Origin: a bacterium
GTDB taxonomy: Bacteria > Desulfobacterota > Binatia > HRBIN30 > CADEER01
Reading direction: 5' to 3'
NCBI GenBank assembly: GCA_030430165.1
Contig: JAUIGL010000012.1
Location: 6,137 to 70,136 of the forward strand
Length of the DNA stretch: 64,000 bases
Positions 8,890 to 62,267 of the stretch are shown here, one piece after another. The notes under the pieces are model-generated. The model worked only from the letters and a program-made list of their open reading frames with translations. It did not search any database and was not told where the DNA came from. Both the position numbers and the translations under genes were made by a program. Numbering within the stretch: the first letter of the stretch is position 1; each line of letters opens with the position of its first letter.

Positions 8890-8972
8890 AGTTTCGTCGA
8901 GTCGTGCGGCTACTTCCGCGGCTGATCCGGGGCGCCGGTTCGCGGCCGGAGCGCGCCACTGGTGATTGAGCG

Positions 8973-9839: not shown

Positions 9840-9854
9840 GCGAGGGCGCAACTG

Positions 9855-10820
9855 GTGCGGCGCAACGGGACAACAGGGACGGCGGGTTTGTGGGCTCTGC
9901 TCGCGCTCGCCCTGACCGCGACGGCACCGGTGGCGGCCGACGACGAGCTGCCGCTGCGGGTGACGACCCGGGTCGAGCCCGAATCGGTGCGCATCGGTGT
10001 GCCGTTCCGCTACTTCGTGCGGGTCGAGACGCGCGGCGAGGCGGAGGTGGTGCTTCCGTTGCTGGTTGGTCAGATCGGCGAGTTCCTGATCCGCGACTAC
10101 GGCGAGACGGCGCAGCCGGGCGGCGATTCGGTCACCGAGCGCTGGTACGAGCTGGTGGGCTACACGGTCGGCGACCAGCTGGTGGAGGGCGGCGAGCTCG
10201 CCTACCGGGTTCCCGGAAGCGAGCTGCAGCCACTGGAGATTCCCGACGCCGTCATCACCGTCGAGAGCCTGCTCGACGATCAGGCGAATCCCGCCACCGT
10301 CGACGTCCGCGACATTAAACGTCCGGTCGGCGTGCCGCGCGACTACTCCGCCTGGTGGATCGTCGCTGGCGCGAGTCTCGCCGCTCTCGGTCTGTTGGTC
10401 GGCGTGCTGTGGTGGCTGCGCCGGCGCGAGGCGGTGGCGTCCGCTGTCGTCGAGCGCCCGGCGCACGAGATCGCCCTCGAGGCTCTCAATCGCCTGCGCC
10501 GCAGCCATCTGCTCGAAGACGGCCAGCAGCCGGAGTACTACGTGCGGCTGTCGGCGATCGTCCGCGAGTACGTCGAGCGGCGCTTCACCCTGCGGGCGCC
10601 GGAGATGACGACCCAGGAGTTCTTGCAGGCGGCGCAATCGAACCGCGACCTGCCGGGGCGCTATCGCAGCAGCCTGGGGGAGTTCCTCAGCGAGGCCGAC
10701 TTGGTCAAGTTCGCGCGGCACGTGCCCACCGTGCAGCAGGGCGAGCGCGCCTACGAGGCGGCGCGCGAGTTCGTCACCGAGACCTCGCGTTCTTCCGAGG
10801 AGAGCGATGCGGCTGCATGA
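9855..10820 (+). CDS. Signal-peptide/TM protein of the Bat-like operon (DUF4381-like?)
   Basis: It has an N-terminal signal (LWALLALALTATAPVAA) and one internal TM (WWIVAGASLAALGLLVGVLWWL), and sits between DUF58 and BatA-like genes. Family assignment is tentative. Confidence 0.5.
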   Translation: MRRNGTTGTAGLWALLALALTATAPVAADDELPLRVTTRVEPESVRIGVPFRYFVRVETRGEAEVVLPLLVGQIGEFLIRDYGETAQPGGDSVTERWYELVGYTVGDQLVEGGELAYRVPGSELQPLEIPDAVITVESLLDDQANPATVDVRDIKRPVGVPRDYSAWWIVAGASLAALGLLVGVLWWLRRREAVASAVVERPAHEIALEALNRLRRSHLLEDGQQPEYYVRLSAIVREYVERRFTLRAPEMTTQEFLQAAQSNRDLPGRYRSSLGEFLSEADLVKFARHVPTVQQGERAYEAAREFVTETSRSSEESDAAA

Positions 10821-11799
10821 CCCCTGGGCGCTGTTGCTGCTCGCGCTGGTGCCGCTGGTGTGGCGCCTCGGCCGATCGGCGACGCCGGCGCTGCGCTTCT
10901 CGTCGGTCGGCTTCTTCGCCGGCATCGACCCCGGTCGGCGGGCGCGATGGCGACGCTGGCTGCCGATCGCCCGCGCCGTGGCGTTCGCGCTGCTGGTAGT
11001 CGCGCTGGCGCGGCCGCAGATGGGCGACGAGCAGACCCGAGTGCGCGCCGAGGGGATCGACATCATGCTCGCCGTCGACCTGTCGAGCTCGATGCTCGCC
11101 GAAGATTTCACCAACGACGCCGGCGACCCTGCGAATCGCCTCGAGGCGGTCAAAGAGGTCGTGCAGTCGTTCGTCGACGGCAGGAGCGGCGATCGCATTG
11201 GACTGGTCCTGTTCGCGGCGCGACCCTATCTGCAGTCGCCGCTGACCCTCGACCACGGTTGGCTGTTGAACAACCTGTCGCGCGCCGAGGTCGGGCTGAT
11301 CGAGGACGGAACCGCCGTCGGATCGGCCCTGGCGACGGCGGTCAACGGCCTCGAGGGATCCGATTCGGAGAGCAAGGTGGTGATCCTGCTCACCGACGGC
11401 CAGAACAACGCCGGTCGCGTGTCGCCGGAGATGGCGGCCGAGGCGGCGGCGACGCTCGGCTACAAGGTCTACACCATCGGCGCCGGCACCAAGGGGGTCG
11501 CCCGCTATCCGCAGATCGATTTCTTCGGCAACAAGCGCTACGTGCCGATGCCGGTCGACATCGACGAGAAGACGCTGCGCGCGATCGCCGCGGAGACCGG
11601 CGGGCGTTACTTCCGGGCGACCGATACCGAGAGCCTGCGACACATCTACGCCGGGATCGATCAGTTGGAGAAGACCGAGCAGGAGGGCTTGCTCTACCTC
11701 GACTACCACGAGCTCTATCCGTGGCTGGCCCTGGCTGCCTTCGCCTTGCTGGCCGGCGAGGCGGTGCTCGCCGAAACCTGGCTGAGGGTGTTGCCGTGA
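10807..11799 (+). CDS. VWA domain membrane protein (BatA-like)
   Basis: The N-terminal TMs are followed by the MIDAS motif DIMLAVDLSSSM and a VILLTDGQNN VWA fold. It overlaps the previous gene by 14 nt. Confidence 0.8.
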   Translation: MRLHDPWALLLLALVPLVWRLGRSATPALRFSSVGFFAGIDPGRRARWRRWLPIARAVAFALLVVALARPQMGDEQTRVRAEGIDIMLAVDLSSSMLAEDFTNDAGDPANRLEAVKEVVQSFVDGRSGDRIGLVLFAARPYLQSPLTLDHGWLLNNLSRAEVGLIEDGTAVGSALATAVNGLEGSDSESKVVILLTDGQNNAGRVSPEMAAEAAATLGYKVYTIGAGTKGVARYPQIDFFGNKRYVPMPVDIDEKTLRAIAAETGGRYFRATDTESLRHIYAGIDQLEKTEQEGLLYLDYHELYPWLALAAFALLAGEAVLAETWLRVLP

Positions 11800-11815
11800 G
11801 CCGGGCGGGAGCGGT

Positions 11816-13843
11816 GTGATGCAGTGGCGTGAGCCCGACTTCCTATGGTTGAGCGGTTTGGTCGTATTGCTCGGCGCGGTGCTGGCGCTTGCCCTGCGCG
11901 GCCGGGTGCGCGCTCTCGAACGTTTCGTCGACGCCGATCTCGGCCGTCGTCTCGCGGTGGGCTCGAGTGCGGCGCGCCGCATCGCCTGCGTTGCGTTGCG
12001 GCTGGCTGCCCTGTTGCTGGTGGTGGTCGCGCTGGCCGGCCCGAAGTGGGGCTTTCACTGGGAAGAAGTGCGGCGCGAGGGGATCGATCTGCTGGTGGCG
12101 CTCGACACCTCGCGCAGCATGCTGGCGACCGACGTCAAGCCGAATCGACTGGAGCGGGCCAAGCTCGCCGTGCTCGACCTGCTGCCGCGCCTGCGCGGTG
12201 ATCGCATCGGGCTCGTCGCCTATGCCGGCACTGCGTTTCTCGAGGCGCCGCTGACCTTGGACTACGCCGCCTTCGCGCGCTCGCTGCGCGCGCTCCAGGT
12301 CGGCATCATCCCGCGCGGCGGAACCTCGCTGAGCCGCGCCATCGAAACCAGTCTCGAAGCGTTCGAAGCGCGCCAGGGCAAGTACGAAGCGCTGATTCTG
12401 ATCACCGACGGCGAGGATCACGAGGGCGACGCGCTCGACGCCGCAACGCTCGCCGCCGAGCGCGGGGTGAGGATCTACACGGTCGGCATCGGTACCCCGG
12501 AGGGCGAGCTGTTGCCGCTGCCCGGCGCGACCGCCGGCTACGTCAAGGATCGCAAGGGACAAGTCGTCAAGTCGCGACTGAACGAGGAACTGCTGCGCGA
12601 CATCGCGCTCGACACCGGCGGAGCGTACGTGCGTGGTCTCGGCCCGCAACTCGGTCTCGACGAGGTGTTCGACCAGCACATCGCCAAGATGGAGCGGCGC
12701 GAGGTCGACAGTGGGCTCGAGCGGCGCTTCGAGCATCGCTTTCAGCTGCCGCTGCTGCTGGCGTTGGTCCTGTTGCTGGTCGAGGCCCTGATCGGCGAGC
12801 GACCGGGGCGGGCGCGCGGCTGGTTGGCGAGGTTGAGCCGCAACCGCGCCGCGGCTTCCGCCTCGATCCTCTGGCTCGCCGTCGCGTTCGCCGAACCGGT
12901 ACCAGCCGGCCTGCTCGACTTCGAGGACCATCCCATCAACCAGGGCGTCGAAGCGTTCGAGCGGGGCGACTACGAGGCAGCGGTCGAAACCTTTGGCGAC
13001 GCTCTGGTGGAGTCGCCGGCCGATCCCCAGCTGCAGTTCGACCTCGGCGCCGCGCTGTACAAGCAGGGGCGCTACGAGGAGGCGATCGCGACGCTCGAGA
13101 AAGCGGCGACCGAGGGCGGCGAGAAATGGGCCGCGCCGGCCAACTACAACCTCGGCAACGCCTACTACCGCGCCGGCGCGGAGACCGAAGGCGAGCAACC
13201 ACAGCAGACACTCGAGCGCTGGGCGCAGGCGCTTTTGGCCTACCGGCGCGCGCTCGCCGTCGATCCGGCCGACGAAGATGCCCAGTTCAATCACGAGCTG
13301 GTGCAGAAGCGAATCGACGAGCTGCGCCAGCGTCTCGAGGACGAGCAGCAGGAAGAGCAGGAACAGGAACAACAGCCCGACGGCGACCAGCAGCAGGAGC
13401 AGGAGGAGCAGTCGGACGGCGAGCAGGAAGAGGGCGAAGAGCAGCAGGAGTCCGAGCAGGGCGAGCAGGAGCGACAGCAGGAGCAGGGTGAGCAGGAGCA
13501 GGGCGAGCAGCAGCAAGACGACTCGCAACAGCCCGACTCCGAGGCAGGAGAGGAGCAGCCACAGCCCGAGGAGTCCGAGGCCGGGGAGCAGGACGAGGAG
13601 GCGGCCGACGACGCTGCCGAGCAGCAGCCGCAAGACGAGCAGCCGGCCGACGAGCCGCAGCAGGAGGAGCAGCCGGCGGCGCAGGGCGGCGGCGAGGCGA
13701 CGGCGTCCGACGAAGAGCGAGCCGCGGAGGAGCAGGCCGCCCAGGCGGTGCTCGACACGGCGCGCGAGGAAGAGCTCGGTCCGCAGGACATCGAGCGCCG
13801 CACCGGCGTTGCCGGTGTCGGCGATCCGATGCAGGATTGGTAG
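11816..13843 (+). CDS. VWA + TPR fusion protein (BatB/BatC-like) with about 170-aa Glu/Gln-rich acidic C-terminal tail
   Basis: The MIDAS motif is DLLVALDTSRSM, followed by TPR-like repeats (YNLGNAYYRAG, YRRALAVDP) and an EQQEEQEQEQQ... low-complexity region. Confidence 0.75.
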   Translation: MMQWREPDFLWLSGLVVLLGAVLALALRGRVRALERFVDADLGRRLAVGSSAARRIACVALRLAALLLVVVALAGPKWGFHWEEVRREGIDLLVALDTSRSMLATDVKPNRLERAKLAVLDLLPRLRGDRIGLVAYAGTAFLEAPLTLDYAAFARSLRALQVGIIPRGGTSLSRAIETSLEAFEARQGKYEALILITDGEDHEGDALDAATLAAERGVRIYTVGIGTPEGELLPLPGATAGYVKDRKGQVVKSRLNEELLRDIALDTGGAYVRGLGPQLGLDEVFDQHIAKMERREVDSGLERRFEHRFQLPLLLALVLLLVEALIGERPGRARGWLARLSRNRAAASASILWLAVAFAEPVPAGLLDFEDHPINQGVEAFERGDYEAAVETFGDALVESPADPQLQFDLGAALYKQGRYEEAIATLEKAATEGGEKWAAPANYNLGNAYYRAGAETEGEQPQQTLERWAQALLAYRRALAVDPADEDAQFNHELVQKRIDELRQRLEDEQQEEQEQEQQPDGDQQQEQEEQSDGEQEEGEEQQESEQGEQERQQEQGEQEQGEQQQDDSQQPDSEAGEEQPQPEESEAGEQDEEAADDAAEQQPQDEQPADEPQQEEQPAAQGGGEATASDEERAAEEQAAQAVLDTAREEELGPQDIERRTGVAGVGDPMQDW

Positions 13844-13845
13844 TC

Positions 13846-16386
13846 ATGCCGAGAGCCCCGATTGCACCGCGACGGGCGCTCGTCGCGCTCATCGTTGCGC
13901 TGGCGCTGAGCGCGCCAGCGGTCGCGTCATCGCAGAGCATCAGCGCGACCGTCGACCGAACGCGTCTGGCGGTCGGCGAAGCGACGATTCTCTCGGTTCA
14001 GGTGATCGGTGCTCAGGGGGCGGCGGCACCGCAGGTGGCGATGGCGGACTGGGAAGTGCGCTATGCCGGGCCGTCGACCGAGGTTCGCTTCGAGAACGGC
14101 GTCACCACCAGCAGCGTCACCCATCGCTACCAATTGCTTGCGCAGAAAGCCGGGTCGTTCACCTTCGGCCCGTACACGGTCGAGGTCGACGGCAAGACCC
14201 TGAGCAGCCAACCGATTGCGATCGAGGTCGTGCCGCGCGGCAGCGAGCCGGTCCAGTCCGGGCGCCCGCAGCTGGTGCTCGACGCCCGCGTCGGCGACAC
14301 CGAGCCGTGGGTCGGCGAAAGAGTCCCGCTGACGATCCGCCTCTTGATCCCGTCGGGAACCCGCGTCGACAATCTGCAGTTTCCGCAAGTGCACGGCGAG
14401 CACGTGGTCGCCGGCGCGATGCCGCAGCCGGCCCAGCGCGACGAGCACATCAATGGGATGGCGTTTCGCGTGCTCTACTTCGAGACCCACCTGACGCCGC
14501 TCGTCGCCGGCGAAAGGGCGGTGACGGTTTCGATGGACCTCAGCGTGCTCGAGCAGGCCCGCCGCAATCGGCAGCGAGGTTTGTTCGGGATGCTGGGGGG
14601 ATTCTCACAGCGGCGACCCGTCGAGTTGCGCAGCGAGCCGTTGCTTCTTCGAGCCCGTGCACTGCCGGCCGAGGGGCGCCCGCCGGGTTTCTCCGGCGCA
14701 GTGGGCTCGTTCAACATGCAGGTGGCGGCCTCGCCGACCGAGCTCGCCGCCGGTGACCCGGTAACCGTGCGCGTGGTGGTTCGCGGTGCCGGCGATCTCA
14801 GCAAGCTGCAGCCGCCGCGCTACCAGGCGAGCGACGAGCTGCGCGCCTACGACCCGCTGCCACTCGCCGACCTCGGCGGAGATGCCAAGGGCATCGAGCA
14901 GGTGGTGATTCCGCAGCAGCCGGGTGTGGTCGAGCTGCCGGCTCTGCAGCTGTCCTTTTTCGATCCCGAAGCCGAGGCCTACCGCACCATCCGCCGGCGC
15001 CCGCGCCCGCTGCAGGTGGCAGAGTCGGCGACCGCCCAGGCGGCGGTGGTCGCCGGCGGCGAGCAGGGGCGCGCCGAGAAGGTGCAGGGCCCGCTCGGAC
15101 GCGACATCGTGTTCATCAAGCGCGCGCCGGGCTCCTGGTCGGAGGTCGGCCGCAGTTGGTGGGGCTCGTGGGCGCTGTGGTTGGTGCACCTGGCACCGGC
15201 GCTCGCCGTCGCCGGCTTGTGGTGGCGGTCGCGCCGGGCGGGCGCGCTCGCTGCCAATCCCAAGTTGCGCCGCTTTCGCGAGGCCGAGGCCAAGGCGCGG
15301 GCGGCGCTCGCCGGCCTGGATGCGAGCGACGGCGGCTTCGTCGACCGGTTGCACGACGCGATCGGCGAGTACCTCGGAGCCAAACTGGACCTCCCCCCTG
15401 GCGCGATCGAGGGCGAGAGAGTGGCGAGCGCCCTCGCCGAAGCCGGTTGCGCACACGACGTCTGCGAGCAGGCGCGCGCGTTCTTCGCCGATCTCGAGGC
15501 CCTGCGCTACGCCCCGGGCGGCGCTGACGATGCGGTACGGCGCGGGCTACTGGCGCGCGCCGAGACGATCGTCGCGGCGCTGGCGAAACGGCGCGACCTC
15601 GAGAGCGGGCTCGCCGCGGCGGCGAAGCTGGCGCTGGTTGCGGTGATCAGCCTGACGGCCGTCGGCCCGTCGCACGCCGACGTGGTCAGCGAGGCCGCCC
15701 CGGAAGCGGCGTTCTTCGCCGGCAACGAGGCCTACGCCGGCGGCGACTACGGACGGGCGGTGGAGCGCTACCGCGAGGCGCTCGCCCTCGGAGTCGAGAG
15801 CGGCGCGCTTCACTTCAATCTCGGCAACGCGCATTTCAAGCGTGGCGAAATGGCGCTTGCCGTAGCCAGCTATCTGCGTGCCCGGCGCTTGCTGCCGCGC
15901 GACCCCGACGTCGCCGCCAACCTCTCGTTCGCCGAAGAGTCGCTCGAGCTCCCGGCGGAGGCGGATCCATTGTGGCGGCGGGCGGTGTTTGCGCTCGCCT
16001 ACCGGGCCAGTGCCGTCGAGCTGGCGACTTTGTTGTCTGTGGCGTGGTGGAGTCTCTGCGCCGTTTGCGCGGCGATGCTGTTGCTGCCTGGGCGGCGCGA
16101 CGCGCTGCGCTGGCCGCTGGCGATCTCGGCGCTGCTGGCGCTGATCGCCTTCGCCAACTTCGCCTACCGCGGCCAGTCGCTCGAGCTGTGGCGGGACGCG
16201 GTGGTCGCCGCGGCGAACGACGTGGTGGTTCGCTTCGAGCCGGCCGCCGACGGTACCGAGCACTTCACGGCGCCGGTGGGCAGCCGGCTGACGGTACACG
16301 AGCGGCGCGAGGGATGGGCGCTGGTGTCGCGCCGCGACGGCCGGCGCGGCTGGTTGCGAGAAGACCAGATCGTTCGTCTGCGCTGA
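13846..16386 (+). CDS. BatD-like protein fused to C-terminal TPR and SH3-like (BatE-like) domain
   Basis: A signal peptide is followed by repeated beta-rich BatD-type domains, a TM region around residue 440, a TPR segment (FFAGNEAYAGGDYGRAVERYREAL) and a C-terminal SH3b-like block (GWALVSRRDGRRGWLREDQI). The ATG at 13846 overlaps the upstream stop. Confidence 0.7.
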   Translation: MPRAPIAPRRALVALIVALALSAPAVASSQSISATVDRTRLAVGEATILSVQVIGAQGAAAPQVAMADWEVRYAGPSTEVRFENGVTTSSVTHRYQLLAQKAGSFTFGPYTVEVDGKTLSSQPIAIEVVPRGSEPVQSGRPQLVLDARVGDTEPWVGERVPLTIRLLIPSGTRVDNLQFPQVHGEHVVAGAMPQPAQRDEHINGMAFRVLYFETHLTPLVAGERAVTVSMDLSVLEQARRNRQRGLFGMLGGFSQRRPVELRSEPLLLRARALPAEGRPPGFSGAVGSFNMQVAASPTELAAGDPVTVRVVVRGAGDLSKLQPPRYQASDELRAYDPLPLADLGGDAKGIEQVVIPQQPGVVELPALQLSFFDPEAEAYRTIRRRPRPLQVAESATAQAAVVAGGEQGRAEKVQGPLGRDIVFIKRAPGSWSEVGRSWWGSWALWLVHLAPALAVAGLWWRSRRAGALAANPKLRRFREAEAKARAALAGLDASDGGFVDRLHDAIGEYLGAKLDLPPGAIEGERVASALAEAGCAHDVCEQARAFFADLEALRYAPGGADDAVRRGLLARAETIVAALAKRRDLESGLAAAAKLALVAVISLTAVGPSHADVVSEAAPEAAFFAGNEAYAGGDYGRAVERYREALALGVESGALHFNLGNAHFKRGEMALAVASYLRARRLLPRDPDVAANLSFAEESLELPAEADPLWRRAVFALAYRASAVELATLLSVAWWSLCAVCAAMLLLPGRRDALRWPLAISALLALIAFANFAYRGQSLELWRDAVVAAANDVVVRFEPAADGTEHFTAPVGSRLTVHERREGWALVSRRDGRRGWLREDQIVRLR

Positions 16387-18827: not shown

Positions 18828-19057
18828 GGTAATCCCCTCGACCACTGGATCGAAAGAGTGTCGCAACTCCGATCGGCAAGATCCAGTGGCGGGTTGCGGC
18901 GGGCGAAGGCCGTGACGACGACCCCGACACCTGACAGTTTCGCAAGCGGCTTCGATGCGATAGGAAAGTCAACCTGTCCTGCCAGTCAACCGACTCCGAG
19001 CTTCCTGGTGTGGGGCTTGCGGAGTCCAGTCTCACAACTCGTCGAAGAGGTCTGTCC

Positions 19058-21448
19058 ATGTCGAAGCCGATCAAAGCCGTCTTTACTCCTCTCTTGGCTG
19101 CTGCAATCTGTGTCGTCTCCGCGGCTGCGGTGGCAGAGGGCAAGGACAAGGTCAAACCGCCTGTCGCCACCTTCGAGGATCGCGAAGTGTTGCCGGTCAA
19201 GCCGCCGCGGCTGGCGCCGATCACGACGCTGGATGCCCGCGACATGGACAGTCCGGCGGTGTTCGAGGTCGCTGCCCCCAAGGGGGCGCCCAACGTGATC
19301 ATCATCCTGGTCGACGATCTCGGATTTGGTGGCACCAGCCACTTCGGCGGCCCGGTGGCGACGCCGAACTTCGACAAGCTGGCGGCGCAGGGCATATCGT
19401 ACAACCAGTTCCACTCGACGGCGCTGTGCTCGCCGACGCGGCAGGCGCTCAAGACCGGGCGCAATCATCACTCGGCGGCGATGGGCAAGATAACCGAAGT
19501 CGCGACCTCGTTTCCCGGTTACACCGGCATGCTGCCCGACGACGTCGCCTCGATCGGCAAGATGCTGAGCTACAATGGCTTCAGCACCAGTGCGTTCGGC
19601 AAGTGGCACGAGACCGCGGTGTGGGAGATCAGCCCGTCGGGCCCGATGACCCGGTGGCCGAACCACCAGGGCTTCGACGAGTTCTACGGCTTCATGGGGG
19701 GCGAGACCAATCAGTGGACGCCGACCATCTACCACAACCAGAATCGCGTCGAGACGCCGGACGACGCCGACTACCACTTCCTCACCGACATGACGACGAA
19801 GGCGATCGAGTGGATCGAGTTCCAGCAGGCGCTCACGCCCGAAAAGCCCTTCTTCGTCTACTTTGCACCGGGCGCGACGCACGCGCCGCACCACGTGCCG
19901 CAGTCGTACATCGACAAACAGAAAGGCCGCTTCGACGCCGGCTGGGACGCCGTTCGCGAACAGATCTACCAGCGCCAACTCGAGAGCGGTGTGATCCCGA
20001 AAGGCACCAAGCTGGCCGCCAAGCCGGACTGGATCAAGGACTGGAAGGACCTGAGCGCGAAGGAGCAGAAGCTGTTCGCGCGCCAGGCCGAAGTATTCGC
20101 GGCCTACGTCGACATGACCGATACCGAGATCGGTCGCCTCATCCAGGCGGTCGAAGACATCGGTGAAATCGACAACACGCTGATCTTCTACATCGCTGGC
20201 GACAACGGGACCAGCGCCGAAGGGGTCGCCAACGGTCTCTACAACGAGATGACCTACTTCAACGCCGAGCCCAAGGGGTCCGACGTCGACTTCATGCTGC
20301 AGTACTACGATCGCTGGGGCGGACCGGAAACCTACCCGCACATGGCGGCGGGCTGGGCGGTTGCGCTCGATTCTCCGTTCGGTTGGACCAAGCAGGTGGC
20401 CTCCGATTTCGGCGGCACGCGCCAGGGCCTGGCGGTGCACTGGCCCGATGGCATCAAAGCAAAGGGCGAGCTGCGCTCGCAGTGGCATCACGTCATCGAC
20501 GTCGTGCCGACGATCCTGGAAGCGGCCGGCCTACCCGAACCGCGGGTGGTGGACGGCATTCCGCAGCGCCCCATCGAAGGGGTCAGCATGGTCTACAGCT
20601 TCGACGACGCCGACGCGGCGGACCGCCACACGATCCAGTACTTCGAGATGTTCGGCAACCGGGCTCTCTACCACGATGGCTGGATGGCGCGGACGATCCA
20701 CTCGACTCCTTGGGGAGGGCCGAAGAACAAGTTGGAAGACGACACCTGGGAGCTCTACAACGTCGCCGAAGATTTCAGTCTGGCGACGGACGTGGCGCGC
20801 GACCACCCGGAGAAGCTGGCCGAGTTGCAGAGCCGGTTCCTCGCCGAAGCGGTCAAGTACAACGTCCTGCCGCTCGACGATCGACTGATCGAGCTCGCCA
20901 ACCCGCAGATCGCGGGACGGCCCGATCTGATGTTCGGTCGGACGACGCTGACGCTCAGGGAAGGCATGGCCGGCCTGCTCGAGAACGATTTCATCAATAC
21001 CAAGAACGCGTCGTACACGATCGAGGCCGAGGTCGAGACCGGCGGCTCGGCCGCCAACGGCGTGATCCTGGCGCAGGGGGGCCGCTTCGGCGGCTACAGC
21101 CTGTATCTGAAGGAGGGTGTTCCGACCTTCGTCTACAACTACCTGGGGCTCGACAAGACCAAGATCGCGGGCAGCGACCCGCTACCGAGCGGCAAGTCCA
21201 CCGTGAAGATGGACTTTGCCTACGAGGGCGGCGTCGGCGGTGGAGGCACCGTGACTCTGAGCGTCGACGGCAAGACCGTGGGCTCGGGCAAGGTCGCCAA
21301 GACCGAACCCAACGTCTACTCCGCCGACGAGACCGCCGGCGTCGGTATCGACCAGGAAACCCCCGTGTCGGACGACTACACACGCGAGAGCAGCAAGTTC
21401 ACCGGCCGGATCCACAAGGTGACGGTCAATACGAAACCATCCAGCTAG
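19058..21448 (+). CDS. Arylsulfatase (formylglycine-dependent sulfatase) with signal peptide and long C-terminal extension
   Basis: The CSPTRQALKTGR active-site C-x-P-x-R motif is followed by GKWH. There is an N-terminal signal peptide and an RBS GAAGAGG before the ATG at 19058. Confidence 0.85.
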   Translation: MSKPIKAVFTPLLAAAICVVSAAAVAEGKDKVKPPVATFEDREVLPVKPPRLAPITTLDARDMDSPAVFEVAAPKGAPNVIIILVDDLGFGGTSHFGGPVATPNFDKLAAQGISYNQFHSTALCSPTRQALKTGRNHHSAAMGKITEVATSFPGYTGMLPDDVASIGKMLSYNGFSTSAFGKWHETAVWEISPSGPMTRWPNHQGFDEFYGFMGGETNQWTPTIYHNQNRVETPDDADYHFLTDMTTKAIEWIEFQQALTPEKPFFVYFAPGATHAPHHVPQSYIDKQKGRFDAGWDAVREQIYQRQLESGVIPKGTKLAAKPDWIKDWKDLSAKEQKLFARQAEVFAAYVDMTDTEIGRLIQAVEDIGEIDNTLIFYIAGDNGTSAEGVANGLYNEMTYFNAEPKGSDVDFMLQYYDRWGGPETYPHMAAGWAVALDSPFGWTKQVASDFGGTRQGLAVHWPDGIKAKGELRSQWHHVIDVVPTILEAAGLPEPRVVDGIPQRPIEGVSMVYSFDDADAADRHTIQYFEMFGNRALYHDGWMARTIHSTPWGGPKNKLEDDTWELYNVAEDFSLATDVARDHPEKLAELQSRFLAEAVKYNVLPLDDRLIELANPQIAGRPDLMFGRTTLTLREGMAGLLENDFINTKNASYTIEAEVETGGSAANGVILAQGGRFGGYSLYLKEGVPTFVYNYLGLDKTKIAGSDPLPSGKSTVKMDFAYEGGVGGGGTVTLSVDGKTVGSGKVAKTEPNVYSADETAGVGIDQETPVSDDYTRESSKFTGRIHKVTVNTKPSS

Positions 21449-21478: not shown

Positions 21479-22666
21479 TCACCCGAACGAGGCTTGCTCC
21501 TGCTCCAGACAACCTTCGATGGCGGTCAGCACGGCGCGGATGAGGTCGTTGATCGAGACCCCGCCGCCGTCGCTGTCGGCGTGCGGGCACTCCTCGGGCA
21601 GGGCGTCGCCGAGGGCGATGCGCACGGCGACGATGAGCTCGCTGATGCTCACCTGACCGTCTTCGTCGCAATCGCCAGGGCAGTCGACGAGTACGATTGC
21701 CGCCGTCGGCGACACGGTCGAGGTCGGAGTCGCCGTTTCGCCAGGGGGCGTCGGCGAGGACGACGGTGTCACCGTTTCGGTTGCCGCCAGGGTTGCGGTT
21801 GGTTCCGCCCGCTCGGTGCGGGCTTCGGTGGCGGTGGGAGACGGCGTGTCGGAGGGAGTCAGTGACGGCGTATCGGTTGCGGTGTAGGTGCTGGTTGCGG
21901 ATCTCGTAAAGGTCGCGGTCGGGGAATCCGTGCGGGTCGCCGTGAAGGTTGCGGTCGGGCGCGTCGGAGTATGCGTTTGGGTCGGTCGGCGCGTGCGCGT
22001 GTCGGTGCGCGTCGGCGTGTGCGGCCGGGTACGCGTGCGCGTGCGGGTCGCAGTTGGGGTCAGCGTGTCCTTGCGAGTGTAGGTCTTGGTGAAGGTCGGG
22101 GTCCGCGTCGACGTTGGCCGCAACCGGATGGTCGGGGTGAAGGTGAAGGTCGGGCGTCGGATCAGTGTGTTGGTCGGTGTCGCGCTTCGCGTCCTGGTCG
22201 GTGTCCGTGTCCTGGTGCGGGTCGAGGTCCGGGTGCGGGTATGGGTAGGGGTCGAAGTGGGCGGGGGGTCCGCGCAGAACCCTTGCTCACACACCTCGGT
22301 GCGCGGACAGTCGAGGTCGGTGTCGCACGGCTGGGCGGTCAGCGCCGGGTCGCAGTCGCCGTTGCCGTCGCAGGTCCCGGGAGCGCCGAACAAGAAGCAG
22401 AGACTGCCGCGTGGTCGTGGTGCGAAGAAGCATCCACCGGCGTTCTCCGAGCAGCTGGCCTGGTAGCACGGGCCAGGCGCTGTGCAGGTGACCGGCGGGT
22501 TCGAGCAGAAGCCGGTGCAGATGTCCAAAGTGCACTTCTTGCCGTCGTCGCACTGCGACGGGCTGGTGCAGATTTGCGCCGCCGCCGGGCCGGGCCGGGC
22601 TACGATCCCGGCCGCCGCCAGTACCACCACGCCTAGCCACGCCACCATTTGCCTGCCGATGCTCAT
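21479..22666 (-). CDS. Secreted protein: N-terminal Cys-rich domain, central Thr/Pro/Arg-rich repeat linker, C-terminal dockerin-like Ca-binding repeats
   Basis: A signal peptide (MSIGRQMVAWLGVVVLAAAGIVA) is followed by about 25 Cys in the first 150 aa, then (T-R/T-P-T)n over about 150 aa, then DCDEDGQVSISELI / DSDGGGVSINDLI pairs. An RBS GGGAGGTG lies upstream. Confidence 0.6.
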   Translation of the reverse strand: MSIGRQMVAWLGVVVLAAAGIVARPGPAAAQICTSPSQCDDGKKCTLDICTGFCSNPPVTCTAPGPCYQASCSENAGGCFFAPRPRGSLCFLFGAPGTCDGNGDCDPALTAQPCDTDLDCPRTEVCEQGFCADPPPTSTPTHTRTRTSTRTRTRTPTRTRSATPTNTLIRRPTFTFTPTIRLRPTSTRTPTFTKTYTRKDTLTPTATRTRTRTRPHTPTRTDTRTRRPTQTHTPTRPTATFTATRTDSPTATFTRSATSTYTATDTPSLTPSDTPSPTATEARTERAEPTATLAATETVTPSSSPTPPGETATPTSTVSPTAAIVLVDCPGDCDEDGQVSISELIVAVRIALGDALPEECPHADSDGGGVSINDLIRAVLTAIEGCLEQEQASFG

Positions 22667-22811
22667 CGTCACCTCCCGGTTGCCGAATGCGGAGCGCGCG
22701 GCGCTCCTCAACCAACTAGGGGCTACTTTCGCGGGCGCGATGCGCCCGCGAAGCGCGCAACGCCGGTGGCGGCCTCGTCAACCTAGGCAACGCCGGGGAT
22801 CGATCGAGGAG

Positions 22812-29526: not shown

Positions 29527-30135
29527 TCAGGCCAGGGCCGTCCGTACCTTGGGCCGTCGCGCGGCGATCGCGCGGAGCGCGACCACGCCGACGATGATCA
29601 CAGCCGCCGGCAGGTAGGTCGGCGATTCGGCGGCGCGCGGCAGGTACGAGTTGGCGAACAGAACCAGCAGATAGTACGAGCCGAAGCGGTGCAGGCGCTG
29701 CCAATTGCGCGTGCCGAGGAGGCGTACCGCGCCGTCGAACGAGGTCGCCGCCATGGCGGCGATGATCACGTAGGCGCCGCCGCCGAAAATCTTGGTGACG
29801 GTGTCGACCTCGAACGAGGAATCGAGCCTGGCGAGGGTCAGGATTGCGGCGAGGTGGACGAAATGCGACAGCGCGAAGCCGAGGCCGAGGTAGCGGCGAT
29901 TGCGCATCATCCAGCGGGTGATCGGAGCCGGTCGCAGCAGCAACAAGCTCGATGCCGAGAAGGAAGCGGCGAACAGGAGCAGAGAGATTCGCGCGGTCTG
30001 GCGGATGACGAGGCGCGTGGCCTCCTCACCCGCGCCGTGCAGGAGCACAGCGTGTGCGACGACTGTCGCGAGGAGCGCAGCGGTGACGCTGAGGAGGGTC
30101 CGGGCTTCGCCTCGCTTGCGCAGTTTCGAGCTCAT
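29527..30135 (-). CDS. Polytopic membrane protein (possibly ferric-reductase-like/YedZ-like heme-binding TM domain)
   Basis: It has 5-6 hydrophobic helices with conserved-looking His pairs (LSHFVHL, RLHRFGSY). The assignment is low-confidence. Confidence 0.45.
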   Translation of the reverse strand: MSSKLRKRGEARTLLSVTAALLATVVAHAVLLHGAGEEATRLVIRQTARISLLLFAASFSASSLLLLRPAPITRWMMRNRRYLGLGFALSHFVHLAAILTLARLDSSFEVDTVTKIFGGGAYVIIAAMAATSFDGAVRLLGTRNWQRLHRFGSYYLLVLFANSYLPRAAESPTYLPAAVIIVGVVALRAIAARRPKVRTALA

Positions 30136-33633: not shown

Positions 33634-36267
33634 TCAATCGTCGGTGAGCCAGTAGTTGCCGAAGAGGATGAACATCTCGTCCTGGGTGCGGAAGCCGCCG
33701 GTGAGCGGACACGCGTCGCAGTCGCCGTCTCCGGCGCCGCCGCTCGAGTCGCAGAACGAGTCGTTGCCGTTGCACAGCTGGTTGTGGTTCGGTCCGCCGA
33801 TACAGCGTGTCTCCGAAACCGCACACGGGCCGCCGATGCGAAAGGCGCCGAAGAGATTGCCGCCCGGAGGGGAGGTCGATCGCCGCTTGACCTCCTGGAT
33901 GTCTGTCGCCCCGTTGTCGTAGTGGGCGCAGTAGGTCAGCGAACGGTCTTCGACCGGGTCGGTGCCGGGCATGCGCAGGGGATCTTCGAAGCGGACCACC
34001 AGCGGATCGTTGTAGATGAAGTTGGTGTAGAGGAGGGCGTCCTCGGGGTCGCGGCCGCCGACCTCGCTGCAGGTCGACTGCGGACACATCTCCGGTTGGT
34101 AAGGCGAGCATGCCTCTCCGGCCTCGGCGCCGCCCTCGCACTCGAACATGCCGCGGAACACCTGGAAGCGTTTGCCGTGCTCGTGCATGTGGCCGCTGAT
34201 CTCGAACAGATTGGCGACCCGGTTCACCGGCAACGGCGAGTCGGCGTAGCGGTCGGGCGGGCGGCCGAAGGTGTGGATGTGGCAGGTTTCGAACTCTTCG
34301 AACGGCATCAGCTGGCGCGGCCCGCTGAGATCGACGAAGGGCACGTCCCAGAAGATCTTGTTGACGTTGAAGATCTGGGTCTGCGGGTAGATCTGCTCGT
34401 CGGGTTCCGGGAACAGGATGTTGACCCACGCCTCGAGCTTGCCGCGCCGTCGCGACAGATTGAAGGCGTGTGAGTTCCACAGGACGTTCCCCTTGATCGG
34501 CACGGTGTCGTACACGTCTTGCGGAAAGTCGAAGACGGTGGTGGTTTCCTGGGCAAAGGCGAACCCGCCCGAGGTCAGCGTGCTCAGCCCCTGTTGCGGG
34601 CCGAACCCGATACAGGCGATGGCGTCGTGGTCGGGCGCGGTTGCGCAGTCGCCGTCGCCGCAGAAGCCGAGCGCGGTCGGGTTGCAGACCTGGCCGTCCT
34701 TGGCGCCGCCGGTACAGCGGTAGGTTCCCCAGATCGGATCGTCGGGCTCGACGTTGCCGCGGAAGAAGTCGACGATCAGGTGGTGGCTGAGCGGATCCTG
34801 GCGGATCTCGACGCGATTGTAGTGGAAGCTCTTGCCGTCGGCGCTGAGGAACTGCGCCGGGATCTGGCCGGTGAGATCGTAGTAGCTGGTGTAGCAGACC
34901 TCCGACTCACTCTCGGGCTCGAGGTACCACATCGGCATGTGCAGCTGGATACCCTCGTTCGGGGCGGGCGGCTCGAGCGGCGGGATCGCGATCGGTTCGG
35001 GTTCGGGCAGGCAGGCGTCGAGCAGCTCGGCGGTTCCCGGGACGGTCTCCGAACGGGTTGCGCCACCGCTTTCGATCCACAACCGCAACGCCTCGACCTC
35101 GTCGAAGGTCAGCGAGTCGGGTCCGACCGGCATCGCCCGCAGCGGAGCGCGCACGTCGTCGAGCACCTTGGCGGCGACGTTGATCCACAGCAGGCTGTTG
35201 GCGCGGTTGCCGGGATCGACGATCTTGTAGCCTTGCGCCGTGGTGGCCGGCCGGTCGACGATCGCTTGGTAGGAGTTGCCGGCGGTGAGGTCGAGTCCGG
35301 CGGCGGGATTGGCCGAGCCGTGGCACAGCTCCGAGGTGCAGCCGCGGTTCTCGAAGATGGCGCGCTGGATCAGGTCGAACGTCGAAGGAAAAGTCTCGCA
35401 CTCGGCAATCGTGCAGTCGTTGCCGCATTCGTCGCCGACGAAGTCGTTGCCGTCGTCGCACTCTTCGCCGGTTTCCTGCACGCCGTTGCCGCAGACCGGA
35501 GCCGGGCACTCGAGGCCGGCATCGACGACGTAGACCAATCCGTTGACGCAGGAAACGCGGTCGACGACGCTGTCGAGCACCGCGTCGATGCTGCGGCCAT
35601 AGACCTCTTCGAATTCGGTGGGCGAGCAGCTCGACAGAATGCGCTTGCGCGAGCGATCGCGCACGCGGTCGAGGATCGTGTCGACGCGGGCGAGCTCGAC
35701 CTCTCTCTCCGACGGGCTGAGGTCCTCGTCGGCAATCCGGTTGAGCGCGCGTTGCTGGAAGCGCATCGCGTAGCGCAGGAGGCGGCCGGTTGCACGGACG
35801 CCCTGGCTGACGCAGCTGCGTTCCGGCTCCTGCGCCGCGGCGACTCTGCCGCCGGCCATGATCGGGCCCCAGACCGAGGAAACTACGGCGGTATCTGCCT
35901 CGCGGCAGGTGCTCTCGATGGATGCCAGGGCGGCGGCGAGATCGCTGTAGCCGAGCTCGCTGGCGGCGGTCTCGTCGCAGTAGCGTTGGACGAGGCTGGC
36001 GGCTCGCTGCTCGGCGGCCGCGGTTGCGGCGTCGAGTGAGTCGCGGTCGCAGATGCCGCCGTCGAGCTCGGCGCCGAGGCAGCGGTTGGTGCGCCGAATC
36101 GACAAGGTTGCGCAGAAGGACGCTGCGCGTCCGATCGCGTTCTGGCAGCGCGCTACTGGATCGCTGAAGTTGCCCCATTCGCCGAGCGGGGGCGCCGTTC
36201 CGGCGTAAGCCGGGGCTGTCAGCAAGAGTCCGGCAACGAGCCGGCAGAGAATCGATCGTGCAGGCAT
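33634..36267 (-). CDS. Large secreted protein with Cys-rich GEECDDGN repeat and cytochrome-c-like (PSCyt-like) domain carrying non-canonical CX4CH
   Basis: A signal peptide is followed by CGNGVQETGEECDDGNDFVGDECGNDC (Myxococcus Cys-rich repeat, TIGR02232-like). RGCTSELCHGS...GLDL...VDPGNRANSLL...MPVGPDSLTFDEVEALRLWIESG resembles a planctomycete-type cytochrome domain. An RBS GGGGGAG lies upstream. Confidence 0.6.
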   Translation of the reverse strand: MPARSILCRLVAGLLLTAPAYAGTAPPLGEWGNFSDPVARCQNAIGRAASFCATLSIRRTNRCLGAELDGGICDRDSLDAATAAAEQRAASLVQRYCDETAASELGYSDLAAALASIESTCREADTAVVSSVWGPIMAGGRVAAAQEPERSCVSQGVRATGRLLRYAMRFQQRALNRIADEDLSPSEREVELARVDTILDRVRDRSRKRILSSCSPTEFEEVYGRSIDAVLDSVVDRVSCVNGLVYVVDAGLECPAPVCGNGVQETGEECDDGNDFVGDECGNDCTIAECETFPSTFDLIQRAIFENRGCTSELCHGSANPAAGLDLTAGNSYQAIVDRPATTAQGYKIVDPGNRANSLLWINVAAKVLDDVRAPLRAMPVGPDSLTFDEVEALRLWIESGGATRSETVPGTAELLDACLPEPEPIAIPPLEPPAPNEGIQLHMPMWYLEPESESEVCYTSYYDLTGQIPAQFLSADGKSFHYNRVEIRQDPLSHHLIVDFFRGNVEPDDPIWGTYRCTGGAKDGQVCNPTALGFCGDGDCATAPDHDAIACIGFGPQQGLSTLTSGGFAFAQETTTVFDFPQDVYDTVPIKGNVLWNSHAFNLSRRRGKLEAWVNILFPEPDEQIYPQTQIFNVNKIFWDVPFVDLSGPRQLMPFEEFETCHIHTFGRPPDRYADSPLPVNRVANLFEISGHMHEHGKRFQVFRGMFECEGGAEAGEACSPYQPEMCPQSTCSEVGGRDPEDALLYTNFIYNDPLVVRFEDPLRMPGTDPVEDRSLTYCAHYDNGATDIQEVKRRSTSPPGGNLFGAFRIGGPCAVSETRCIGGPNHNQLCNGNDSFCDSSGGAGDGDCDACPLTGGFRTQDEMFILFGNYWLTDD

Positions 36268-36428
36268 GAATGCTCCCCCTACGTAGAACCCGAACTATAT
36301 CGGTCCGGCGTGGAAGTAGAAAGGCAGTCGTTTTGCGCGCGAGGTCGCACTCTGCGGCAATTTGGATGGATTGCGGGGGGCGGCGGCTTGCGTCACTCTT
36401 CGGCGGGTGCTTGACCGGACATTGTCCG

Positions 36429-38075
36429 ATGTTGCCGTTCGTGAAGAATCGATGGACGCGTTCCGCGGTCGTCGCGATCCTCTTCTTGCTCACCGGCAAG
36501 CTCGGTCACTTGGTGGCGATTCCTCCCGGCTTGGCGACACCGGTGTGGCTGCCCTCGGGGATCACGGTCGCGGCGTTCCTGCTTTGGGGGCGGCAAGTGT
36601 GGCCCGGCGTGTTCGCGGGTGCCCTCTTGATCTCGGCGCTGCAGACACAGGGCTCGTCGGAGCTCGGAAGTCTCTTGTGGGCGGCTGCTGTCTCGGTGGC
36701 GCTCGCCTCGGCGGTTACCTTGGAGTGTTTGGTTACCTACGGACTGTACCGCCGTTGGGGCGAGGATGGCCCCCTGTTGGCGAAGTCGCGCAACGTCACG
36801 GCGCTCCTGCTCGGTGCTGCGCCGATCGGCTGCATCGGCGCCGCGAGTCTCGCCACTCTGGTACTGGTCGGCAGCGGCATGGTCGAGTGGGGCAGGTTCG
36901 GCGAGACGTGGCTCACTTGGATGGTCGGCGACCTCGCCGGAATCTACACGCTGTCGCCGGCCATTCTGACGCTGGCGGCCGGTGGCTCGGTATGGATGAG
37001 TCGGCGCGACCAGGTGAGTGCAACCGTGGCCGTGCTCGGCCTGGCGCTGGTTTGCGGCGTCACCTTCTTTGTGCCGCTGGAGGGCTACCCGCCGCTGGCG
37101 TTTCTGCCGGCGCCGCTGGTGATCTTCGTCGCGTACCGCTTCAACGACATACTCGCCAGTCTGGTGGGGCCGGCGGTTGCCGGGCTGGCGCTGTTCGCGA
37201 CTGCGACCGGCGTCGGCCCATTTGGCAAGGTACCGACCAACGAGGCTCTGGTGGTCCTTCAGCTGTTCGTCACGGTTGGAATTCTGACGGCGCTGCTGGC
37301 GCGCGCGCTGGCCAACGAGCGCGATACCGCGGAACGCGAGGCGCAGCGGTTGAGTGCCGACCTGGCGCATCTGTCGCGGGTGACCATGATGGGCGAGATC
37401 GCGGCGGGCATGGCGCACGAGTACCACCAGCCGCTGGCGGCGATTTCCAACTACGCGAGCGCCATCCGGATCAAGCTGCGCGGCCACGAGGGTGCGGCTC
37501 GGGACATCGGCGAGGCGCTCGAGCGGATCTCGGACGAGGCGATTCGAGCGGCCGGGATCGTCGACCACCTCAAGCAGTTCCTGCAGAAGCGCGAGCCGGA
37601 ACGCGTTCCCAGCGACGTGAACGAGATCGTTGCCGACGCCGTGCGTTTGACGCGCACCGCGCACTCGTTTCCGGACATCGAAATCATTCACGAGCCGGCT
37701 GACGGCCCGCCCTCGGCCAACGTCGACCAGATCCAAATCACCCAGATCCTGGTCAATCTGCTCCTCAACTCGTGCGAGGCGATCCAAGCAAGTGGAAGAA
37801 GCGGAGGCGAGGTCCAGGTCGAAGTGCGCGAGCGGCCGGGCGGATGGCTGCGGATTGTGGTCTCGGACAACGGTCCGGGAATGGACGCCGCCGCCGCTCG
37901 CTCTTGCTTCGATCAATTCTATTCCACCAAGCAGGACGGTCTTGGGATCGGCCTGGGGCTCAGCCGCACCCTGGCGGCCTCTCACGGTGGCCAGTTGCGG
38001 CTGGTCGCGACCAGCGAAGGTGGGACGACTTTCTGCTTGGAGCTGCCGCTCGCGGAATCCGACGAGACCAGCTGA
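36429..38075 (+). CDS. Sensor histidine kinase with N-terminal MASE1 membrane sensor domain
   Basis: The MASE1-type TM region (AIPPGLATPVWLPSGITVAAFLLWG) is followed by the HisKA H-box EIAAGMAHEYHQPLAAI and a C-terminal HATPase_c (DNGPGM, GLGLGLS). Confidence 0.8.
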   Translation: MLPFVKNRWTRSAVVAILFLLTGKLGHLVAIPPGLATPVWLPSGITVAAFLLWGRQVWPGVFAGALLISALQTQGSSELGSLLWAAAVSVALASAVTLECLVTYGLYRRWGEDGPLLAKSRNVTALLLGAAPIGCIGAASLATLVLVGSGMVEWGRFGETWLTWMVGDLAGIYTLSPAILTLAAGGSVWMSRRDQVSATVAVLGLALVCGVTFFVPLEGYPPLAFLPAPLVIFVAYRFNDILASLVGPAVAGLALFATATGVGPFGKVPTNEALVVLQLFVTVGILTALLARALANERDTAEREAQRLSADLAHLSRVTMMGEIAAGMAHEYHQPLAAISNYASAIRIKLRGHEGAARDIGEALERISDEAIRAAGIVDHLKQFLQKREPERVPSDVNEIVADAVRLTRTAHSFPDIEIIHEPADGPPSANVDQIQITQILVNLLLNSCEAIQASGRSGGEVQVEVRERPGGWLRIVVSDNGPGMDAAAARSCFDQFYSTKQDGLGIGLGLSRTLAASHGGQLRLVATSEGGTTFCLELPLAESDETS

Positions 38076-38083
38076 GCTCGCCG

Positions 38084-39115
38084 TCAGCGCACGTCGGGGC
38101 CCACCGGGCGGCCGTCGACGATTTGGTCGAGGTACTCGGAGAGGCCGTATCCGGTCTTGCCGTCGCAGGAGTACTCGGTCATTCCTTCGGTGATCCGGGT
38201 CACCAGCGAATCGCCGGCCTCGGTCTTGCGCCGGTTGCGCAACGGGATCATCGACAGGACGCGTCCTTCGACCTCGAATTGGCGATCCTTGGTTTTTGCC
38301 CAGGCGCGGAGGTTGGTCTGGTACCAGTTCTCGTCCCAGGTGCTTTCGATGCGCGCGTCCTCGATCAGCGTATAGACGCCGTTCTGCAGCACCATGCCGC
38401 TGCGCCGCGGCTCGCCGTCCTCGCGGCCGATGATCGAGATCATCATCGCGAAGTCCGGGCCGAAGTTCATCGGCAGCCAGCGATACCAGTGCACGGCTTG
38501 CCAGTAGCGCGGTCCCCAGCTCTTGTCGCGCAAGCCGAAGCCTTCGATGTCCCAGGTTTCGTCGCCGATGGTGATGACGCCGCTGGCGGCGACGTGTTGC
38601 TCGTAGTGGGCTTTGGCGAAGGACTTCTCGGGATCGACCGGGATCTCGGAGCCATCCGCTTGCACTGGCTTGCCGCCGAACATCGGCGCGATGCCGCGGT
38701 AGTCGAGGTCGACGGTGCAGTCGACGATCGGATTGTTCTTGAAGGCGGCCGAGGGGTTCGCCATCTGCAGCGGCTCGTCGAGCAGGCAGATCTTTCCGTC
38801 GTAGTGAACCCGCAAGTGCTCGAAGGGCTCGACGACCTCGAAGTGCATGCCGCCGGCGCGGAGCTCGCGGTTGTGCTCGATCTTGGGGCGGCCGTACATG
38901 AAGCCGATGCGGCCGTCGGACAGGTAGATGCAGTTCGACATCTCGGCGTAGCCCTCGTGCACTCGGTTGCCGAGCCGGAACCAGCCGCCGATCTTGCGCC
39001 GCGGATCGAAGACGTTGAAGTACATACTTTCGTTGTAGTTCGACGCCGCGTCCGGCTCGTGGCAGAGCTCGTCTTCGGGCTCGAGGACATAGCGTATGCT
39101 GTCTCGATCGGCCAT
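38084..39115 (-). CDS. Hypothetical protein (344 aa, soluble, beta-rich; family not recognised)
   Basis: The ORF is clean, with the start at MADRDSIRYV. The NESMYFNVFD motif is faintly reminiscent of the CrtC/AttH lipocalin-like fold, but this is not reliable. Confidence 0.5.
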   Translation of the reverse strand: MADRDSIRYVLEPEDELCHEPDAASNYNESMYFNVFDPRRKIGGWFRLGNRVHEGYAEMSNCIYLSDGRIGFMYGRPKIEHNRELRAGGMHFEVVEPFEHLRVHYDGKICLLDEPLQMANPSAAFKNNPIVDCTVDLDYRGIAPMFGGKPVQADGSEIPVDPEKSFAKAHYEQHVAASGVITIGDETWDIEGFGLRDKSWGPRYWQAVHWYRWLPMNFGPDFAMMISIIGREDGEPRRSGMVLQNGVYTLIEDARIESTWDENWYQTNLRAWAKTKDRQFEVEGRVLSMIPLRNRRKTEAGDSLVTRITEGMTEYSCDGKTGYGLSEYLDQIVDGRPVGPDVR

Positions 39116-39221
39116 TTCTCGCTTCCTTTCGCTCGGCCACCGCCCGATGGATTGAACGGTTGCGGGCAAGTGGTCTAGATTCCGGCGATTCGAAGGGAAG
39201 CAGATCGAAGGAGATCCCACA

Positions 39222-39626
39222 ATGAGCAAGCTAGCGTTTCTGTCCGACGAGTGGATTGCGCAGGCGACTGCGCTCCAGGCCGAGTACCGCGAGCGCATGC
39301 CCCCGCCGGCGGTCAAGATGAAGATGAACCAGCTGGTGACCGGGGTTCCGTTCGGCTCCGGTGAGGTGAAGATGCACATCGATTCGTCGACCGGCACCGC
39401 GACCATGGGCAGCGGTCACGTCGACGGCGCCGACATCACCGTCACCACCGACTACGACACCGCCCGCCAGTTGTTCGTCGACAACAATCAGCAGGCGGCG
39501 ATGCAGGCGTTCATGCAGGGCAAGATCAAGGCGCAGGGCGACATGGCGAAGCTGATGGTGCCGCCGCCGCCGAAGAACGAGGCGCAACAGGAGTTCGAGG
39601 CCAAGCTCAAGGAGCTGACCGAGTAG
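39222..39626 (+). CDS. SCP2 sterol-carrier-like domain protein
   Basis: The C-terminal AFMQGKIKAQGDMAKLM is the SCP2 signature (GKLKIEGNMALAMKL-type), and the protein is about 134 aa. Confidence 0.6.
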   Translation: MSKLAFLSDEWIAQATALQAEYRERMPPPAVKMKMNQLVTGVPFGSGEVKMHIDSSTGTATMGSGHVDGADITVTTDYDTARQLFVDNNQQAAMQAFMQGKIKAQGDMAKLMVPPPPKNEAQQEFEAKLKELTE

Positions 39627-62115: not shown

Positions 62116-62267
62116 GGCCTGCCCCTGGGTGTTCGGCTGACAACCAGCCACAGGTGGCGGCGGAAATCAAAAGGGCTGCGCGGCGAGCTGCGAGCAGAGT
62201 TTGCAACCGGCCGCTGGATGGAAGTAGACAGATCGTTCGCCCGGGTGGCGTGAGAGGAACTGGTTGG

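Follow-up and report, generated by a model that had tools for sequence, protein, structure and literature searches.

Gene, product and export

The window analysed is the whole stretch of 64,000 nucleotides from contig JAUIGL010000012.1 (assembly GCA_030430165.1, a bacterium of the Binatia; positions 6,137 to 70,136), and the gene under study occupies positions 33634..36267 of it on the minus strand. In the program-made list of open reading frames (ORFs) it begins with ATG and encodes 877 amino acids (aa) followed by a stop codon; a Shine-Dalgarno-like GGGGGAG run lies immediately 5' of the start codon, and third-position GC is 0.87, a value typical for real genes in this window (GC ~67%). The product is probably an exported, disulfide-rich, three-cofactor oxidoreductase, with a heme c module joined N-terminally to a PHM/DBH-type dicopper monooxygenase core. 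Its features are collected in Table 1.

The N-terminus (MPARSILCRLVAGLLLTAPAYA followed by G) was read from the sequence and the hydropathy profile as a Sec-type signal peptide with an A-x-A cleavage site; no hydrophobic span after it was found in the profile of the whole 877-aa protein. The protein has 37 cysteines, 36 of them in the mature form (the heme motif takes two, and the other 34 could form 17 disulfides). Among 5.8 billion proteins searched there were 197 homologues, of which the 120 listed were aligned; the 34 non-heme cysteines are nearly all conserved among them, which fits an oxidising, extracytoplasmic location. An exported, extracytoplasmic protein is thus predicted from sequence, in agreement with the initial annotation, which had called it secreted; that annotation was also right in describing the protein as Cys-rich, its figure of about 40 cysteines being corrected here to 37. 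The Myxococcus-type repeat it had recognised (GEECDDGN, aa 251-290) passes the cut-off of TIGR02232 (myxo_disulf_rpt; 21.6 bits, 20.8 required) but not that of Pfam DUF4215 (23.7 bits, 27 required). This repeat and the preceding helical Cys-rich domain are probably accessory modules for targeting or partner binding; a search of PDB chain sequences with the query returned only chance disintegrin-like matches, to the Cys repeat.

Table 1. Features of the 877-aa protein and their positions in the window.
Feature	Position	Strand	Evidence
Whole gene	33634..36267	-	ORF list; third-position GC 0.87; full-length homologues 42-68% identical
Sec-type signal peptide, aa 1-22 (MPARSILCRLVAGLLLTAPAYA)	36202..36267	-	sequence reading and hydropathy
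N-terminal all-helical Cys-rich domain, aa 36-246, 9 conserved Cys	35530..36162	-	~880-aa class only
Single myxo-type Cys-rich acidic repeat (DUF4215 / TIGR02232), aa 251-290	35398..35517	-	profile scores
c-Type cytochrome module (PSCyt1/Cti/FoxE-like), aa 293-403	35059..35391	-	
Heme-attachment motif C310-T-S-E-L-C315-H316 (CX4CH; H316 predicted proximal ligand)	35320..35340	-	conservation
M379-P380, candidate distal Met heme ligand	35128..35133	-	conservation; ligand role inferred
PHM-like N-subdomain (CuH domain), aa ~436-625	34393..34962	-	
H495-H496, predicted CuH ligands (= PHM H107/H108)	34780..34785	-	conservation, local hhalign
H600, predicted third CuH ligand (= PHM H172)	34468..34470	-	conservation, order, beta-strand; positional inference
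PHM-like C-subdomain (CuM domain) with Cys-rich insertions, aa 626-877	33637..34392	-	
H693-M-H695, predicted CuM ligands (= PHM H242/H244)	34183..34191	-	conservation, hhalign
M865 in D-E-M motif, predicted CuM Met ligand (= PHM M314)	33673..33675	-	conservation, hhalign

Cytochrome module and CX4CH motif

The sole CXnCH motif of the protein is C310-TSEL-C315-H316, and no CXXCH occurs anywhere in its 877 residues. C310, C315 and H316 are each conserved in 120/120 homologues and M379-P380 in 119/120, the latter pair falling in the segment that aligns with the last part of the cytochrome modules of PSCyt1 and Cti. In a divergent alignment (83 full-length representatives and the query, members sharing <=50% identity) the Cys...Cys-His columns coincide in 83 of the 84 sequences and Met-Pro is kept in 83; the motif at those columns is CX4CH in ~72, canonical CXXCH in ~9 (for instance CIGCH in P0143, CVGCH in P0173 and CVACH in P0191) and CX6CH in one. 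The module has a cytochrome c fold with a candidate distal axial ligand, and FoxE is its closest structural match; searched in isolation by phmmer, it gave no match. It is concluded that this is a genuine heme c domain, for which a covalently bound heme is predicted.

The PSCyt-like c-type module with CX4CH, proposed earlier for a redox protein, is therefore retained; its Cys and His residues, whose conservation among homologues the initial annotation had made part of its refuting condition, are invariant. A heme-free derivative, the other possibility offered there, is unlikely because neither Cys/Cys/His nor the distal Met-Pro varies and CXXCH stands at the same columns in relatives. CX4CH is listed among the documented heme c attachment motifs (PMC11492766). 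Within the 64-kb window no Ccm or Ccs maturation gene, no copper-handling gene and no second c-type cytochrome was found, the product of 33634..36267 being the window's only CXXCH/CX4CH protein. The Ccm system of E. coli is understood to tolerate CX3CH and CX4CH variants, and a dedicated lyase for CX4CH is not indicated, though one may be encoded outside the window.

Predicted dicopper core

Residues ~436-877, over half of the protein, are a PHM/DBH-type dicopper core in which all six predicted copper ligands are conserved. The core consists of two antiparallel beta-sandwich subdomains, and the structural comparison gives PHM and DBH twice the score of PNGase F. H495, H496, H600, H693 and H695 are each present in 120/120 homologues and M865 in 118/120; in the 84-sequence set the counts are 84 (H495), 82 (H496), 79 (H600; 3 gaps), 78 (H693), 75 (H695) and 72 (M865; 10 gaps), the misses being mostly gaps, in truncated sequences. 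Ligand composition and order (His-His...His, then His-x-His...Met) are those seen at CuH and CuM in non-coupled dicopper monooxygenases: H107/H108/H172 and H242/H244/M314 in PHM (PAM catalytic core; PDB 1sdw, 1phm), H262/H263/H333 and H412/H414/M487 in DBH.

The family profile was aligned by hhalign with the rat PHM core, the sequence of which was entered by hand (all six published ligand numbers land on His or Met). The top local alignments coincide exactly with the ligand motifs, in collinear order: LSHHLIV with TVHHMLL (E = 0.26), ISGHMHEHGKR with YRVHTHHLGKV (E = 0.0022 to 0.019) and TQDEMFILFGNYW with SSDEMCNLYIMYY (E = 0.021 to 0.071). Pfam Cu2_monoox_C is touched by 2 of 52 family members (E = 0.017). 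Since the structural and active-site features are present and the curated sequence thresholds are not reached, the core is placed as a distant structural relative of PHM and DBH, outside current Pfam models. The earlier description as an extracellular redox or binding protein of unknown role holds as regards redox; the role is not simply unknown, the PHM/DBH-type core having been missed.

In PHM, R240, N316 and Y318 anchor the peptidylglycine carboxylate. The corresponding positions here are S691, I867 and F869, by weak hhalign alignments that are indicative only; as the anchoring residues are not conserved, a glycine-extended peptide would be an unlikely substrate.

Proposed reaction and alternative explanations

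In the proposed enzyme, one heme c would be attached covalently to CX4CH, its axial ligands being His316 and Met379, and copper would be held at CuH by H495, H496 and H600 and at CuM by H693, H695 and M865. From a respiratory-chain carrier in the periplasm the heme would receive electrons one at a time and hand them to the copper sites, doing the job of ascorbate in the animal enzymes; O2 would bind to reduced CuM (His2Met), and the resulting cupric-superoxo species would abstract a hydrogen atom from a substrate C-H bond, the substrate being hydroxylated. PHM uses one electron per copper per turnover, supplied by ascorbate, and it is by this analogy that the tethered heme c is proposed as electron source. 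The fusion suggests a large enzyme family with a built-in heme as electron source instead of vitamin C.

Several observations weigh against this assignment. Taken one by one, the sequence matches to PHM fall short of significance (E 0.002 to 0.26), and they were obtained with a hand-entered PHM sequence; no alignment paired H600 with PHM H172; the curated copper-monooxygenase profiles (PF01082, PF03712) did not match the query at E<=10; and family hidden Markov models A1 and A4, run against the PDB, gave no PHM match, only a non-significant one to the cytochrome of hydrazine synthase alpha. The inter-ligand spacings are 104/93/170 residues, as against 64/70/70 in PHM, being longer because of Cys-rich insertions, which could change the active-site cleft. 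In the full-length model the confidence (pLDDT, predicted local distance difference test) falls to 51-72 directly after the heme motif. The profile check suggested in the initial annotation did detect PSCyt1 (PF07635) at aa 315-368 with E = 0.009, but at 17.0 bits the gathering score of 22 was not reached; relatives score 22.1 (P0126, CX4CH), 21.9 (P0191, CXXCH) and 20.9 bits (P0202). As the PSCyt1 and DUF4215 scores are sub-threshold, profile evidence from the single protein is weak and the case rests on conservation and structure. Finally, that electrons run from heme to copper and that O2 is required are assumptions carried over from the animal enzymes.

It is on this last point that the first alternative turns: the copper domain might oxidise a substrate as an oxidase or dehydrogenase, its electrons passing by way of the heme into the respiratory chain and no oxygen being inserted. 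A fused cytochrome alone leaves the direction unfixed, FoxE was deposited as a putative iron oxidase, and the substrate-binding residues of PHM are not conserved in the hhalign alignments. However, the complete His2Met set of CuM, which is the O2 site, is conserved, and to our knowledge the characterised non-coupled dicopper enzymes (PHM, DBH, tyramine beta-monooxygenase) are all O2-activating hydroxylases, every characterised His3 plus His2Met enzyme consuming two external electrons. Reverse flow is accordingly regarded as unlikely.

Alternatively, the heme could be the catalytic centre, as proposed for the fatty-acid cis/trans isomerase Cti, itself a periplasmic heme c enzyme, and the PHM-like beta-sandwiches could be a substrate-binding scaffold. 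Pfam CTI is weakly matched by 18 of the 52 family members (best E = 3.4e-4), but over only ~33 residues (profile positions 83-117 of 692) that form the C-terminal helix of the cytochrome module; since the match is limited to that module, it points to a shared cytochrome type and not to a shared enzyme, and a relationship to Cti (PF06934; only positions ~81-119 matched, <=22.3 bits, cut-off 25) was rejected as resting on this helix. For a scaffold, six invariant copper ligands would be unnecessary, and a His/Met six-coordinate heme would suit electron transfer rather than catalysis, which makes a catalytic heme quite improbable. That the protein is a cofactor-less or heme-only extracellular binding or structural protein, with CX4CH as a disulfide and a PNGase-F-like lectin or binding fold, is hardly credible, given that PNGase F scores half of PHM and DBH, that a disulfide would need neither the invariant His after the second Cys nor the distal Met-Pro, that homologues have canonical CXXCH at the same site, and that all six copper ligands are conserved among members sharing <=50% identity.

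Comparison with known systems

The heme c-dicopper fusion differs from PHM in the lack of a significant sequence-profile match, in about 130 extra residues of Cys-rich insertions, in its covalently fused c-type cytochrome in place of soluble ascorbate, and in its bacterial (Binatia) instead of eukaryotic origin. Compared with DBH, tyramine beta-monooxygenase and MOXD1 (PDB 4zel), it has no dimerisation domain. The DOMON domain of DBH has the fold of a heme-binding cytochrome domain without heme ligands and is not a c-type cytochrome, whereas the N-terminal redox module here is a class-I-like heme c domain of unrelated fold.

Most of the related cytochrome modules, namely PSCyt1, the N-terminal module of Cti, FoxE and the C-terminal heme domain of hydrazine synthase alpha, have two residues between the cysteines, against four here; PSCyt1 modules are joined to DUF1549/DUF1553-type planctomycete domains, whereas this one is fused to a copper monooxygenase core. 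The CX4CH sites of multiheme cytochromes are bis-His hemes in compact proteins; here a single heme is predicted, housed in a class-I-like domain whose conserved Met is the likely distal ligand. The variant motif itself is the same documented one (e.g., tetraheme cytochrome c3; PMC11492766).

The design principle, though neither the folds nor the chemistry, is like that of other cytochrome-tethered copper enzymes, and no homology to these is claimed. In cytochrome-c-fused copper nitrite reductases, and in cellobiose dehydrogenase acting on lytic polysaccharide monooxygenases (LPMOs), a heme domain is tethered to or partnered with a mononuclear-copper site and single electrons are passed.

Family, homologues and architecture

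Homologues fall into two classes, one of ~880 aa covering the whole query at 42-68% identity, and one of ~660 aa that lacks the first ~290 residues, and with them both the DUF4215 repeat and the N-terminal helical domain. Searching exhaustively with a profile of the shared core gave 269 clusters (50% identity) at E<1e-30, rising to 1211 at E<1e-10. The constant unit is the cytochrome followed in fixed fusion order by the dicopper core; N- and C-terminal additions vary. DUF4215 is found in 27 of the 52 family members, in as many as six copies in one relative, and other additions are an extra cytochrome c module, TIG domains, PEP-CTERM tails and a PQQ-like beta-propeller. Among individual relatives, P0162 has the PQQ-like beta-propeller at its C-terminus, P0184 an additional N-terminal Cytochrome_CBB3 module, and P0188 and P0201 PEP-CTERM sorting tails; the C-terminal Nuo51/SLBB/4Fe-4S region of P0211 possibly comes from a mis-joined gene call.

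In members of the ~660-aa class the CuM subdomain is enlarged by an insertion of ~70 residues that contains two D-x-D-G-x-V-x-x-x-E-L-V repeats (as in P0092, aa ~490-530; alignment A3); these repeats give weak EF-hand or dockerin scores and may bind calcium or cohesin. Matches of this kind were rejected as part of the query, as they map to the insertion of the ~660-aa class only. A 410-aa ORF of the window without Pfam match (21479-22711, minus strand) has two segments in common with the family profile (hmmsearch E = 5.7e-12), which correspond to this dockerin/EF-hand-like insertion and to a Cys-rich stretch; it may be another exported Cys-rich protein with the same accessory module.

A scan of one genome per species returned 315 relatives, nearly all in metagenome-assembled genomes labelled Binatia or 'Deltaproteobacteria'. 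Many genomes hold several copies (among the 80 loci listed, OFTM157 has 8, RBC016 has 6 and several others have 4). A few members stand under other labels (L057, Nitrosopumilus sp.; L017 and L037, Margulisiibacteriota; L083, beta proteobacterium), which could reflect mis-binning or horizontal transfer. In the Binatia assembly GCA_026004195.1 (L003) two family genes lie in tandem (8001-10457 and 10653-13184); the product of the second has 843 aa, is 37% identical to the query, carries CX4CH (CTSFGCH) and lacks one Cys-rich insertion of CuM, and the pair indicates local duplication and divergence. Paralogue expansion together with variable accessory modules suggests many different substrates or targets.

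In public sources no name was found for the exact 877-aa protein, and family members are called only 'DUF4215 domain-containing', 'cysteine-rich repeat protein' or 'hypothetical'. The literature on bacterial or cytochrome-fused PHM/DBH-like enzymes, on PSCyt1 and on Binatia copper enzymes yielded no description of a cytochrome-dicopper family; a covalent c-type cytochrome with CX4CH fused to a PHM/DBH-type core has, on this evidence, not been described.

Genomic context and other features of the window

The window carries a single copy of the family gene. Its two neighbours lie on the opposite strand and encode a Na+/H+ exchanger and a MASE1 histidine kinase; both are common only to a 64%-identical relative and not to more distant ones. 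When the ORFs of 79 loci were clustered, no conserved operon partner (copper chaperone, Ccm/Ccs variant, substrate pathway) was found in more than 9 loci; two larger clusters were rejected as antisense shadow ORFs, and the remaining neighbour clusters are housekeeping or acyl-CoA metabolism genes. In the absence of conserved neighbours the gene appears self-contained.

The histidine kinase ORF (36270-38075, plus strand) begins 3 nucleotides from the start codon of the family gene; since its MASE1 match begins at residue 67, the true kinase start is probably downstream, and a divergent intergenic promoter region would then remain. The kinase is adjoined by genes for a DUF7064/DUF7065 protein (38084-39406, minus strand) and an SCP2 sterol-carrier-like protein (39222-39626, plus strand). 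A DUF7064 gene also adjoins the family gene in the closest syntenic relative (L002), a pairing that is not kept further afield.

Elsewhere in the window, positions 7903-16386 (plus strand) hold a complete MoxR-DUF58-DUF4381-BatA/VWA-VWA/TPR-BatD 'aerotolerance' (Bat) operon. A 202-aa membrane-like ORF (29527-30135, minus strand) has no Pfam match at E<=0.01; its syntenic gene in L002 is recorded as Ferric_reduct (MsrQ-like heme b protein). A sulfatase fused to a lectin-like Laminin_G_3 domain (19010-21448, plus strand; 812 aa) and a DUF3604 protein (59833-62151, minus strand; 772 aa) may both be exported enzymes.

Conclusion

PHM/DBH-type non-coupled dicopper monooxygenases are ascorbate-dependent animal enzymes of neurotransmitter (noradrenaline) and amidated peptide-hormone synthesis. 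It is suggested tentatively, as a possibility and in full awareness that it may well prove wrong, that the family described here, with the window protein as its founding example, is a large bacterial group of ascorbate-independent C-H hydroxylases of this type, wired to the respiratory chain through the fused heme c and expanded by paralogy in the Binatia, where it would form an unrecognised periplasmic or extracellular oxidative toolkit. The Binatia are an uncultured phylum of worldwide distribution, to which methylotrophy and alkane degradation are attributed (PMC8262859). If the suggestion is true, the toolkit would be comparable in diversity to P450s or LPMOs and directed at hydrocarbons, lipids or polymers; the family would show how PHM/DBH chemistry runs without ascorbate, and its tethered donor would be a self-contained system for the long-debated delivery of electrons to and between CuH and CuM. 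The natural series of CXXCH, CX4CH and CX6CH in one homologous module is usable for the study of substrate tolerance in the heme-attachment machinery. For hundreds of unannotated, paralogue-rich Binatia genes, the assignment would, if true, be the first functional handle.

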